Assembly (NCBI GenBank): GCA_951406725.2
Contig: OX597819.1
Location: forward strand, 24,118,001 to 24,182,000
DNA: 64,000 nucleotides
DNA from: Octopus vulgaris
Lineage: Eukaryota
Direction: 5' to 3'
The translations under genes were made by a program, and so were the position numbers. Numbering within the stretch: the first letter of the stretch is position 1; each line of letters begins with the position of its first letter. Shown piece by piece: positions 1 to 14,590 of this stretch. The notes under the pieces are model-generated. The model worked only from the letters and a program-made list of their open reading frames with translations. It did not search any database and was not told where the DNA came from.

Positions 1-873
1 GGTACTAATATTGCTTCTGTCGCTAATTGCAACGCTTGTGCTTGAATAGACACCGATATTCTATAAATCGTTGACAGGAGATTCGGCTATTATGTCGTTG
101 TTTGACATCTGTCACTGAGAGCCCATAGCAGGGCGAAATCACGTGATCTGCCAGTTCCGGCGGCGGTAGGAGACGCTTATTGTCTGTGAACAAAATCATT
201 ATGAGTGCTTTGTGCAGCACGAATCCATATCAAAGAACGCAACGCACCTGCCGCTCTAGGAACTGAAACCACCATCTCGCGATCGTGCGTCCAACAAGCC
301 TGACCACTAGATCAAGCATCGTCACACACACACATACACCGCACACACACACACACACACACACACCAAAATGTAAGAATGTATATTAGCGTAGAAGTTC
401 TAATTACTTTCGTTTGAATGTCGAGTTAATGAACTATGTTCCTTGCATATTTCTACTAGTTAATTTTTATTTAAAAGTATTAAATATCTTATATAGGGAT
501 TTTGCCAAACATTTGGATTGGATGAAGAGGTTCAGTAGAAATACCCTCCGCGTTTAGCAAGACCTCAGACCACTAGAGATTTTTTTGGGGGAGACTTAGA
601 AAGTGAAGTTTACGTTACAAAACCGGTTAGAGTCGACGAATTGAGGGCATCCACTAACAAGAAAACGCAAAAATATCGAATGAAATGTATCTTGATATCT
701 GTGCTATCATCAGTGCCTTGACTAGAATGGTCATCAGTTTAGAAACAGGCGTTCCTAATAAATTAAATTCTATCTATTGATTCTATTACAATTTGAAAAT
801 GAATAAACACTGACTTTATAATCATTCGTTGTGTGAGTGTGTACAGGTTTTGACACTGTATATAAATAAATGT

Positions 874-2890: not shown

Positions 2891-2942
<52 letters not shown>

Positions 2943-3428
2943 GCGAGAAAAAAGCAACAAGAATGGATAGGTTTTTAGTACAATCGTTTCATACAAGGAC
3001 AGGCTTTATTAAAAGTAGCAAAAATTGCAGCATATAAACGTGTTGCGTACTCATCAGCTAAAATACATGTGAGTTCTCTAGACATCCTAGTGGTTGAGGC
3101 TATACTCATGAAGTAATGTAGATAATTAAGTAACATAAACAGATTTCCAAAGTTCATTAAAGTTCATTAAAGATGATGTACAGTCTTATCACAGAATTTT
3201 AAAAAAGTTTTAATAGCATCACAGAGAAGGTAACTTAATCCATAGTGTACATATGAATTTCCAGAGATATGAGGAGGGATTACATACTCACAGACGACAA
3301 ATTTATCCATTGCTAATCACAACGAGGTGGGTTTCAATTCCTGCTTATTAGCATTACAGAGAGGGTGAATTAATCCTTTGTATAGATGCACAATTTCCAA
3401 TGGTGTAGATGTAAATTTCCAGAGAAAT
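2943..3428 (-). repeat. Left inverted arm (copy of the pseudo-LTR)
   Basis: Reverse complement of 5605-6090 with about 5 mismatches by eye. The ORF track shows twin 60-aa ORFs at 2975-3157(-) and 5876-6058(+). Confidence 0.95.
2973..3063 (-). ncRNA. Type I hammerhead ribozyme motif (left arm)
   Basis: Minus strand reads ttttag CTGATGA gtacgcaacac...tgtccttgtat GAAA CGATTG TA ctaaaa; helix I is ttttag/ctaaaa. Confidence 0.78.
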
Positions 3429-4479
3429 CTCTCATAGATATCATAGAATTATTTCTAGGAAAACAGTTAGGATTTCTTATTCAACCCTCCCAAATATGTC
3501 CACTTTAATAGCTAAGATTAATAATAACAACATTAAACTAGCCAGGAAAAATAGAAATAAAAATAATAATATCAGCATGAATACCAATAGCAATTATAAT
3601 ATTACTACCAACAATAAAAACAGCAATAGTAACTATCAAAACATGGGTGAAATTAGTTACCACAGAATGACTAATAACATTAACATTAATAGTAATAATA
3701 ACAATACCGATATTAATAGAAGTAATAATGTTAATAATAGAAATAATAGAAATAAGGCTAATAGAGAAAATAAGGAGAATGAAAATATCAGTGATATCTA
3801 TAGCAACAATATGCAGTCGGATAAAAAGACTAACAATAATAGTAACATTACCAATAATATAAGAAATCATGGTAGGACTTTAGACCTAAAAGATGAAACA
3901 GAAGGATCAATAAATAATAGCAATACTTTAGATATCAGCACCAACTATAGAAATATTAATAACAATAAGGACAATTATACTCATGATAATCAAAATAATA
4001 GGAACCTAAGACATCTACCCAAGAATAATCCAAAACCTGAAGTTGTTCCTCCTGTGTGTAAGTGTAGAATAAAATCAAAATGCCCGGCACCTGGTCTATG
4101 CGGGGAAAATAATGTAATCTATAAATGTACCATATCCACGGAGAATAACAAATATTTTTACATTGGATGTACAATTAATTTTCTAGCCAGAGTTAGAAAT
4201 CACATCTCGTCTTTTAAATTACGTCATAAAGCTGGTACCACCACACTTTCAAACAAAATCTGGGAACTCAAAAATAATAATAATAATTACAACCTTAATT
4301 GGGAAATAGTTAGGAGAGCAATTCCGTATAAAAATAGCAGGGTTGGTTGCCAACTATGCTCCATGGAGACGTATGAAATTCTAAAGCATAGAAAACATAG
4401 AAACTTATTGAATAACCATATCGAACTAGGTCAAGTTTGTGTCCACGCTAAATTGGAGACTTTAAAATATTTAAAATGA
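3421..4479 (+). CDS. C-terminal part of a Penelope-like RT-EN polyprotein: linker, Asn-rich insert, Cys motif and GIY-YIG endonuclease (first ATG at 3496)
   Basis: CKCRIKSKCPAPGLC (4057-), VIY (4114-4122)...YIG (4159-4167), R..NH, TTLSNKIWELK, CQLCSME, LLN, terminal CVH. The frame stays open upstream of the ATG as HRYHRIISRKTVRISYSTLPNM, matching the PLE post-RT motif HKIFNRNTVKVSYSCMPN as I recall it. Confidence 0.88.
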   Translation, partial: REISHRYHRIISRKTVRISYSTLPNMSTLIAKINNNNIKLARKNRNKNNNISMNTNSNYNITTNNKNSNSNYQNMGEISYHRMTNNININSNNNNTDINRSNNVNNRNNRNKANRENKENENISDIYSNNMQSDKKTNNNSNITNNIRNHGRTLDLKDETEGSINNSNTLDISTNYRNINNNKDNYTHDNQNNRNLRHLPKNNPKPEVVPPVCKCRIKSKCPAPGLCGENNVIYKCTISTENNKYFYIGCTINFLARVRNHISSFKLRHKAGTTTLSNKIWELKNNNNNYNLNWEIVRRAIPYKNSRVGCQLCSMETYEILKHRKHRNLLNNHIELGQVCVHAKLETLKYLK

Positions 4480-5604
4480 TTAGAATACTCGTAACTAGAT
4501 AGATAGATAGATATAACTTGATTTTTACTAGTATAGCACTGCTTTAAGTAGATAACTAAGAGTTCTCACACTACAGTTATCTTTTTCCTTATATCTGCAT
4601 CAGTTTTTTTTGAGAACAGGGAAATGAATAGTACTTATACGCTGCTTAATTGAGGCTTTATTTAATTTCAAACTCATAATTTTAAATTTTTAAATCTTAA
4701 TTTTAAATCTTAATTTTAATTTTAATTTTAATTCTTAACTTAATCTAATTTAAGTAGCATAACTTTAATAAAATAAAATGAGTTACTAAAGCCCCATAAT
4801 TCTATTTCAAAATTAAATAAATAAGGCTACTCCCTCGGTGATAATATGATTATCTTCATTATGATAGACAATTCCCTAACACCTTGTAAATGATCTTCTA
4901 AGATTTGACCTGTAGTCCGTCAATGTATGAATAATAACGGCAACTCCTTAAGACAGTAAAATGAATAAAATAAATAAATAAATTTTAATAACTTTTTGAT
5001 AAGATTATACTTAGATTTTCCTAATGTATTTTCTTTTGATTTTAGCCTTTGACCACTAAACCCCTAAACCCCTGACCGTGTTATCTCTTTAGATTCTCTT
5101 TAAATTCATAGCTGCTTTCGACAGCAATAAATTAGCTGTTTTACTGGTCAAAGAATAATATTCTCCTCTAGTTCCTAGATGCCTGTAAATTAAAACCAGA
5201 CTTGCCGTCTACTAATTCTTCTGTATAACTAGAACCCTCTTTTTTTCTTTTTCTTTTTTTCCCTTCTTTCCCTATTTCTTTCTCTTTTCTCTTTTTTTTT
5301 TTTTCTTCTTCTTCTTATTCTCTTTTTCTTTTTTTCTTTTTCCTTTTCTCTTCTCTTCTAGCCCCCCCCCTTTTGCTCCCTCCCCCTTTATTTTCTCTCT
5401 TTCCTTCTCTTTCCTTCCCTTTTCTGTTCTTTGCCTCTCCAGAAAGCCCTTCAGCCTTTAAAAGTTAAATAGCTACAGTCTCTTGAAAATAGCAGTAATG
5501 TGATTAATGTGGCAAATACCTAATCATATAGCAAGAATTGATACCCACCCCATTGTGTTCAACCATTGATAAATTTATCGCCTGTGAATATGAAATTCCT
5601 CTTC

Positions 5605-6090
5605 ATTTCTCTGGAAATTTACATCTACACCATTGGAAATTGTGCATCTATACAAAGGATTAATTCACCCTCTCTGTAATGCTAATAAGCAGGAATTGAA
5701 ACCCACCTCGTTGTGATTAGCAATGGATAAATTTGTCGTCTGTGAGTATGTAATCCCTCCTCATATCTCTGGAAATTCATATGTACACTATGGATTAAGT
5801 CACCTTCTCTGTGATGCTATTAAAACTTTTTTAAAATTCTGTGATAAGACTGTACATCATCTTTAATGAACTTTAATGAACTTTGGAAATCTGTTTATGT
5901 TACTTAATTATCTACATTACTTCATGAGTATAGCCTCAACCACTAGGATGTCTAGAGAACTCACATGTATTTTAGCTGATGAGTACGGGACACGTTTATA
6001 TGCTGCAATTTTTGCAACTTTTAATAAAGCCTGTCCTTGTATGAAACGATTGTACTAAAAACCTATCCATTCTTGTTTCTTTTTTCTCGC
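5605..6090 (+). repeat. Right arm (pseudo-LTR) of the Penelope-like element
   Basis: Inverted counterpart of 2943-3428. Confidence 0.95.
5970..6060 (+). ncRNA. Type I hammerhead ribozyme motif (right arm); predicted cleavage after GUA at 6054
   Basis: Helix I 5970-5975/6055-6060; CTGATGA 5976-5982; helix II gtacgggaca/tgtccttgtat; GAAA 6043-6046; helix III ACGATTGT; GTA 6052-6054. Confidence 0.85.
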
Positions 6091-6207
6091 TTATAATCAC
6101 CCCACATTACTGTATTGTTAAAACCGTATAGTTTGTTTTGGTGCATCTAAGTTAGGTACCATATTCAAGTAAATTCATTTAAATTAACTTGAATCTTTAT
6201 TGCTTTT

Positions 6208-6246
<39 letters not shown>

Positions 6247-8904: not shown

Positions 8905-9957
8905 GGCGGCAAGTTCGCTGAATCGTTAGCACGCCGGGCAAAATACTTAGCGGCATTTCGTCCGTCTTAAAGTTCTAGGTTCAAATTCCGCCGAGGTCGA
9001 CTTTGCCTTTCATCCTTTAGAAGTCGATAGAAGAAGTATCAGTAAAACACTGAGATCGATATCACTGATTTATCCCCTCCCTGAAATTGCTGGCCTTGTG
9101 CCAAAATTTGAAACCAACAATCTCTGCGCTTAGGGTGGTGGAGATAACCGAGAAAGCGTAGTAGATTAGAGCTTAAATGGAGGGGAGAAAAAATAAAATT
9201 CATGAGCTTTGATGGCTATTTTACATATAGGAGAGAGAAAAGGGAATAACTGCTAAATCAAAAATAATTTGTCATTGAATAGAGGTACGTCGTTAGATCA
9301 ACTGAATTCTGAATTAATGGATACCTATTCCTTTACTACCCACAAGGGGCTAAACATAGAAAGGACAAACAAGGAAGGACATAGGTATTAAGTCGATTAC
9401 ATCGACCCCAGTGCGTAACTGGTACTTAATTTATTGACTGCGAAACGATGAAAGGCAAAGTCGACCTCGGCGGAATTTGAACTCACAACGTAACGGCAGA
9501 CGAAATGCCGCAAAGCATTTCTCTCGGCATGCTAACATTTCTGCCAGCTCGCCGCCTATTCTGAATCAATGGATACCTGGCTGAGTATTCCACAGAAACA
9601 TAATGTTTCTGTGAAATGATGTGATAAGTAAAGCGTGCCTCCGGTGAAGTTACTCTAAACGTAATTCCCAGGCAAAATATGGGTGTCACGGTGTTTTACA
9701 GTTGAATTTCCGACACAATCAATCCAACAGATTCCGTCTACGCAATTTCACTCACAGTCTATGGGGGCCATAGCCTTATTTCGTCTGCCGTTACGTTCTG
9801 AGTTCAAATTCCGCCGAGGTCGACTTTGCCTTTCATCCTTTCGGGGTCGATAAATTAAGTACCAGTTACGCACTGGGGTCGATGTAATCGACTTGATCCG
9901 TTTGTCTGTCCTTGTTTGTCCTCTCTGTGTTTAGCCCTTTGTGGGTAGTAAAGAAAT
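8905..9957. mobile_element. Three SINE group 2 copies (+ ~8905-9115, - ~9320-9557, + ~9778-9957)
   Basis: Shared core ttcaaattccgccgaggtcgactttgcctttcatcc. Confidence 0.8.

Positions 9958-13594: not shown

Positions 13595-14590
<996 letters not shown>

Follow-up and report, generated by a model that had tools for sequence, protein, structure and literature searches.

A type I hammerhead with a long, folded domain II in the pseudo-LTR of a Hydra-clade Penelope-like element of Octopus vulgaris

Hammerheads in related elements

Type I hammerhead motifs near the 3' end of Penelope-like elements (PLEs) have been described in the Hydra-clade elements Hydra-1_oBim and Penelope-13_HM (Craig et al. 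2021, PMC8557442), which the octopus element reported here resembles in this respect and in its C-terminal endonuclease. The features given for the Hydra clade in that source, RWK, DKT, CxCx5C, CxxC, CxH and (TA)n targets, are also shared, as are the palindromic helix III and the inverted, 5'-truncated partner of the published Hydra PLEs. By contrast, domain II of the octopus hammerhead comprises 60 nt, compared with 10–24 nt in all 26 Hydra rows of File S2 (PMC8557442), which include an Octopus bimaculoides element. The helix III palindrome is 8 nt long rather than 9–10 nt as in the published Hydra rows, the unit measures ~4.6 kb with an ORF of ~950 aa, whereas Hydra elements are described as "generally under 3 kb", and the tail is ~114 nt, compared with the 30–40 bp given for PLEs in general (PMC8557442).

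The PLE hammerheads of Cervera and De la Pena (2014, PMC4209133) share the small palindromic helix III, the dimer architecture and the pseudo-LTR location. Opposite-strand hammerhead pairs 100–700 bp apart and a helix II larger than canonical are already present in that report, in which slow dimer cleavage, with tandem transcripts or circles as template, was proposed. Helix II spans 6–8 bp there, whereas in the octopus motif a 10-bp basal stem runs into a rod and an apical hairpin. A domain II of 53 nt, with a 9-bp stem and a 35-nt loop, is listed in File S2 (PMC8557442) for PLE-X1_sMoe of Selaginella, but this element is from a plant, is endonuclease-less and non-Hydra, and is flagged there as deviating from the canonical structure.

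In the PAc hammerhead of the Anolis PLE Poseidon (Frangieh et al. 2024, PMC11167929), two downstream reverse-transcription starts define the tail, as they do here. Uncut RNA is the template in that system, no RNA-seq ends are reported at the cut site, and cleavage is protein-assisted and dispensable. PAc belongs to another PLE clade, and its ORF starts inside stem II, whereas that of the octopus element starts ~210 nt past the predicted cut site. Animal non-LTR retrozymes (PMC7229834; bioRxiv 10.64898/2026.07.22.740005) similarly combine a type I hammerhead with a 2-bp helix III and a tetraloop, but are short non-coding tandem repeats (PMC7229834), whereas the octopus motif sits in a coding PLE.

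No printed description of the octopus long arm was found; Lunse et al. 2017, Arkhipova et al. 2017 and the supplements of PMC4209133 and PMC7229834 may hold such variants. The words "hammerhead" and "ribozyme" are absent from the main text of the 2026 Octopus vulgaris repeat paper (PMC13282606). The unusual part of the octopus motif is its arm, which exceeds twice the length in the described relatives; the hammerhead, the PLE and the dimer architecture are of known kinds.

The motif and its host element

The DNA analysed (the window) is a 64,000-nt stretch of the Octopus vulgaris genome (GenBank assembly GCA_951406725.2, contig OX597819.1, positions 24,118,001–24,182,000, forward strand). A type I hammerhead motif occupies positions 5970–6060 (+) and is identical to the commonest motif form among the fetched loci. 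Helix I is formed by TTTTAG (5970–5975) and CTAAAA (6055–6060), and the core CUGAUGA (CTGATGA, 5976–5982) is invariant across 22 aligned rows except at its variable position 7. Domain II (5983–6042, 60 nt) consists of a basal stem (5983–5992 with 6032–6042; 10 bp, one bulged U and a G.U at the base), a loosely paired middle and the apical hairpin UGCAA-UUU-UUGCA (6004–6016), the middle pair of which is C-G, U-G or U-A among relatives. The second core tract, GAAA (6043–6046), is followed by the helix III palindrome ACGAUUGU (6046–6053), which gives 2 bp and a 4-nt loop in a monomer and 8 bp in a dimer, and by the GUA triplet (6052–6054), with a predicted cut after 6054 that was placed by the hammerhead consensus. 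All of these parts, each on the plus strand, lie where the original prediction had located them, and its reading of a PLE hammerhead variant in which helix II is extended and helix III is palindromic, as in the dimer type, is supported.

The core sequences CUGANGA and GAAA and the NUH triplet are joined by three helices with helix I open, as in type I hammerheads. In place of the G10.1-C11.1 pair at the base of helix II, the window has G.U; across the 22 rows this pair is G.U in 10, G-C in 9 and A-U in 3, and the G.U has precedent in the published Hydra rows, where it occurs in Penelope-13_HM and -17_HM (PMC8557442). The short helix II of dimer-type PLE hammerheads is replaced by the 60-nt domain, as opposed to 10–24 nt, which is the variant feature of this motif.

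An Rfam scan gave no hammerhead match at the motif coordinates, likely because the long arm breaks the models, and thousands of hammerheads are unannotated in this genome because size-limited descriptors and Rfam miss them. A regular-expression scan of the window returned two full motifs and one weak 3-bp candidate. A weak Rfam Hammerhead_HH9 match (19.3 bits, E 1.2) was seen at 90–171 (+), with a core that reads CACTGAGA..GAAA..GTGA and fails the motif scan. Contigs from four probable RNA runs cover the motif at 90% likeness, although contigs cannot show ends or strand; among the records holding the motif, none is registered as RNA.

The host is a 5'-truncated Hydra-clade PLE body (3426–6209, +), 99% identical to the intact copy L135 from ~codon 608; since the match begins only there, the reverse transcriptase (RT) has been lost. 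The remnant ORF (3415–4479, +; 354 aa stop to stop) comprises an Asn-rich linker, CxCx5C and a GIY-YIG-type endonuclease with CxxC and CxH, and a Pfam search with it gave no significant match. The 3' UTR, or pseudo-LTR, upstream of the hammerhead extends over 4480–5969 (+). The tail of ~114 nt (6096–6209, +), present in the main copy only, reaches the long end at ~+155, and (TA)n target tracts lie to the left (2894–2941) and right (6210–6244). Within the 3' UTR, a 104-nt direct repeat was observed (5530–5633 and 5688–5791, ~81% identical, 158 nt apart). A ~190-nt dispersed repeat ending in a TA tract lies at 2700–2893, and also at 9391–9509, 13794–13912, 13977–14095 and 14429–14547; the PLE was inserted in the TA tail of the copy at 2700–2893.

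Searching the genome of the octopus itself (2.8 Gb in 227 contigs) returned 1,560 candidates; the 40 top-ranked ones scored 97–100% identity. In the full unit, represented by L031, an ORF with RWK, DKT and the RT core is followed by the endonuclease, the 3' UTR and the hammerhead. Unbroken ORFs of 949–957 aa with CKCRIKSKC, CQLC and CVH were found in 6 of the 14 fetched full-start copies of the young family. In the intact copies (L135, L136, L138, L141, L143 and L147) a single ORF encodes the RT and then the C-terminal GIY-YIG endonuclease, and both RWK and DKT are present; the CxCx5C linker is there too, together with CxxC and CxH flanking the E and N residues, and inspection by eye showed no CCHH. 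On the features of Craig et al. (2021), the element is assigned to the Hydra clade. Its family is young, given the unbroken ORFs in 6 of 14 full-start copies and the 1,472 genome matches to the family core, whereas the reversed control gave 0. Among 75 matches, the named homologs belong to Octopus sinensis, O. vulgaris and a sea urchin. Two long Asn-rich insertions were noted in the protein of this lineage (window 3415–4040; L135, L150), which measures 950–1,070 aa, compared with ~720 aa in homologs. Assignment to the Naiad PLEs was rejected, the element lacking their combination of an N-terminal endonuclease, DKA and no canonical hammerhead, as was a non-LTR retrozyme (a non-coding tandem unit of 150–450 nt), the motif being part of a 4.6-kb coding unit. 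The hammerhead of the window, of type I, thus belongs to the pseudo-LTR of a young Hydra-clade PLE.

In 53 of 56 distinct 3' contexts, the element ends in a TA tract no more than 160 nt from the cut site. The ends fall ~150–160 nt past the cut site in 34 contexts, at ~37 nt in 18 and at 32 nt in 1; the other three have no TA tract within 260 nt. The short end (~37 nt) belongs to the inverted partner, and this layout of tail and inverted copy is the known PLE arrangement. In the window, the partner is an inverted, 5'-truncated copy of the element's 3' end (2938–3428, −; short end at ~+37 to +41 from the cut site), and contains an inverted hammerhead (2973–3063, −) with three private changes in domain II. 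The two arms (2938–3428 and 5605–6095) are 491 nt long and 99% complementary. They differ at six positions rather than the approximately five first counted, three of them in domain II as claimed. In right-arm numbering, the left arm has private differences at 5801, 5988, 5989 and 6016 and the right arm has one at 6078, the sixth being the junction base. Clustering of mismatches in domain II was considered and rejected, given that 2 of 4 internal mutation events in 60 of 491 nt is not significant (hand-computed p ~0.07).

It had been suggested that the right copy is the functional one. This does not follow: the defects of the left copy are private mutations, and the right arm is itself privately changed at 6078. 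This window has the genome's sole GCAACAC form, compared with 1,472 occurrences of the intact core, and inverted partners elsewhere are for the most part undamaged; decay alone accounts for the state of the left copy. Both window copies are likely inert, because the insertion has no RT and because in a read-through RNA the 491-nt arms would pair with each other as a single duplex, computed at −852 kcal/mol for a transcript across the whole locus. The statement that dimerisation would require two RNA molecules holds for this inverted locus only. It fails for the full-length element, given that L031 carries two same-strand hammerheads 4,635 nt apart, flanking the ORF, so that one transcript could dimerise in cis.

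The domain II arm and its distribution in the genome

The window's domain II folded only modestly better than shuffled sequences (z −2.0 to −2.1), and the 101-nt whole motif folded no better than shuffles (z −0.66). Support for the arm fold comes from comparison across families. Here, 20 family representatives were hand-picked from 78 distinct motifs in the fetched loci, poor folders (e.g. L045, L088 and L093) being omitted where the family had a better copy; in this selected set, domain II of 19 of the 20 gave a z below −1.5 against dinucleotide shuffles, with a mean of −3.4.

Covariation was assessed in 22 sequences from the window's lineage and a sister family, corresponding to approximately four independent lineages, with the structure taken from the window's own sequence. 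Paired cells accounted for 90.7% of 594, compared with 83.6% when shuffled (0/500) and 32–49% in slid controls. Compensatory changes were observed in three pairs of helix I, four of the basal stem and two of the apical hairpin, and in the loop III dimer pair. The covariation check across genomic copies that accompanied the original prediction has returned a conserved core and compensatory changes in helices I, II and III, the count of pairs changed on both sides (10) alone being not significant, as it did not exceed shuffles (36/500). RNAalifold recovered the apical hairpin, together with a competing hairpin that hides the GUA site, and not the hammerhead. In the window, the competing hairpin spans 6039–6055, where the 3' strand of helix II is able to pair with the GUA site, and it can form in 22/22 aligned relatives; this could represent an off state, or simply follow from the GUAC palindrome.

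Arm identity in three related copies was 87–93%, compared with 72–80% for the 150 nt upstream. In six copies of the sister family the corresponding values were 58–62% and 39–47%. The bulged U five pairs from the core is common to two families. As judged from these alignments, the 60-nt arm is a conserved folded rod that is better kept than the flanking UTR. A scan of 19 aligned copies with flanks for arm-to-flank pseudoknots, which is blind to non-canonical contacts, revealed no conserved covarying helix, and the arms of distant families are alike in length and shape with no common sequence motif.

The long-spacer hammerhead pattern gave 2,672 matches in the genome and 26 in the control. In lineage E, Hydra-type endonucleases are followed by arms of 54–58 nt at 9 of 15 loci, and at 2 of the 15 older lineage F loci the arms measure 61–62 nt; long arms are thus present in three or more divergent Hydra lineages of this genome. 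In most families, including those with a short 3' UTR, arm length is near 50–62 nt. The same genome holds a more abundant family with a 10-nt arm, whose helix III type has up to 4,501 motif matches. Hydra-type elements can therefore spread with a short arm, and the long one is a lineage trait and no requirement. A count by which long arms would dominate the genome (2,672 vs 169) was discarded, because the pattern demanded GAAACG and missed the short-armed families (4,501 matches). Young intact Hydra families with other arm lengths were represented by two loci, one with a 10-nt domain II upstream of the ORF (L159; 2-bp stem, GCAA loop) and one with a 31-nt domain II in the 3' UTR and a CCGAAGA core variant (L184). 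The 10-nt-arm family also has many inverted pairs with cores 10–32 nt apart, repeatedly 25 nt (for example G000:C1 4679295-4679376, 13277383-13277464 and 34584494-34584575), which suggests a truncation hot spot just upstream of its hammerhead. Separately, a retrozyme-like tandem array of 563/397-nt units, 97–99% identical, was seen at L100:1898-8181 (G000:C5:54193500-54202500); its units carry type I hammerheads with a ACGUACGU helix III. A metagenome search confirmed no related loci among 200 candidate stretches, and comparison with pseudo-LTRs from outside octopus is therefore confined to the published table.

A tree of 43 proteins (5 long-armed rows, 2 short-armed octopus families and 36 homologs; unrooted, with partial sequences and long branches) placed the five long-armed rows on one side of a branch with SH-aLRT 99, by which a single origin of the long arm is allowed. 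Such a topology would be expected if the arm were a functionless, tolerated expansion of loop II that arose once in one Hydra lineage and was kept paired to spare the core. The short arms that work in the same genome, the distant-family arms sharing length and shape with no motif, and the growth of the window's lineage elsewhere (ORF of ~950 aa vs ~720 aa) are consistent with this explanation. However, the arm is kept at a clearly higher identity than the adjacent UTR, even at an apical hairpin that lies far from the core, and its length stays near 50–62 nt even in families with a short 3' UTR, so that functionless expansion is possible, if on the unlikely side.

Cleavage and the role of the arm

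Positions 6046–6053, ACGATTGT, self-pair at 8/8 positions with two G.U pairs (−5.8 kcal/mol), and helix III is fully self-pairing in 18 of the 20 representatives. The loop III dimer pair is G-C in 10, A-U in 7 and G.U in 5 of the 22 rows, and is never broken. The monomer hammerhead fold has a computed probability of 0.0025 (7.6e-6 for the left copy). A double hammerhead was computed at −35.6 kcal/mol, with the best dimer at −36.5 and a pair of unbound monomers at −29; it lies 0.9 kcal/mol above the former and 6.6 below the latter. The retention of the helix III palindrome with covariation of the dimer pair supports dimer cleavage.

Every 3' end with a TA tract lies downstream of the predicted cut site. 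Given that both 3' ends do so, the template would have been uncut, or rejoined, at that site. Twenty of the 30 copies that keep the ORF start extend upstream past the cut site and through a second hammerhead, and the other 10 begin 23–207 nt after that site; none of the 30 insertions starts at the cut site, ends being approximate for the 14 more diverged copies. Genome-wide, a single match carries anything but an A ahead of the 3' helix I strand. These copy ends would fit slow, dimer-dependent cutting, with long tandem transcripts or circles as the template (PMC4209133), and likewise the protein-assisted, dispensable cleavage of the Anolis PLE (PMC11167929). One locus, L133 (G000:C4:98843904-98846928, minus), has a poly(A) insertion directly after CUGAUGA and two extra nucleotides precisely where the cut is predicted; this single case is possibly a ligation scar, chance or an assembly error.

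We consider it probable (roughly 0.68) that cutting is slow and confined to the double hammerhead, with the 60-nt arm as a folding aid or protein handle outside the catalytic core. In this model, the hammerheads of two pseudo-LTRs, on one tandem transcript or on two transcripts, would pair through ACGAUUGU into an 8-bp helix III, and the paired double hammerhead would cut after GUA. A lone hammerhead would remain uncut, so that reverse transcription beginning at TA-like stretches ~37 or ~155 nt 3' of the cut site could copy through it. The arm, a conserved RNA rod, would help the RNA to fold or offer a handle to which the protein of the element binds. The likeness in shape of distant arms with no common motif, together with the lack of conserved flank pairing, is compatible with any of three readings: folding aid, lineage-specific protein handle and tolerated expansion. 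A more specific version, in which the 50–62-nt arm of the octopus radiation docks the element's own RT-endonuclease in a lineage-specific manner and the protein-gated double hammerhead is off in the template and cuts only in a tandem transcript, must be regarded as doubtful.

The same copy ends bear on whether the motif is catalytic at all. Were it no longer so in vivo, with the fold kept as a protein-binding site near the reverse-transcription starts, one would expect the observed absence of a genomic footprint of cutting; the replacement of G-C by G.U at the helix II base in the young family, and the unaffected in vitro insertion of hammerhead mutants of another PLE (PMC11167929), point the same way. 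However, the core positions, the NUH triplet and the dimer palindrome have been kept across lineages whose flanks are unalignable, which renders loss of catalysis improbable. It is very improbable that the motif cuts as a monomer, with a tertiary contact between the arm and helix I or its flank making good the weakness of the 2-bp helix III. Invertebrate retrozyme hammerheads, most of which cut efficiently, typically have just such a 2-bp helix III closed by a tetraloop (PMC7229834), and two families share the bulged U five pairs from the core. By contrast, loop III stays palindromic with compensatory change, the 19 aligned copies have no covarying arm-to-flank helix (non-canonical contacts being invisible to that scan), and a monomer that cut efficiently would sever the template upstream of the two 3' ends. 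The idea that the motif resembles a hammerhead by chance, to which the missing Rfam match and the whole-motif z of −0.66 might have pointed, is refuted by the 2,672 vs 26 pattern matches, by a pseudo-LTR position as in all Hydra elements and by covariation in helices I, II and III.

Slow cleavage as a double hammerhead, with the arm outside the core, is thus the preferred reading, and the long-arm finding leaves the concept of hammerheads and PLEs unchanged. The presence of young intact Hydra families with 10-nt, 31-nt and 60-nt arms in one genome constitutes a natural series in arm length, which serves the question of the role of PLE hammerheads left open in PMC8557442 and PMC11167929.
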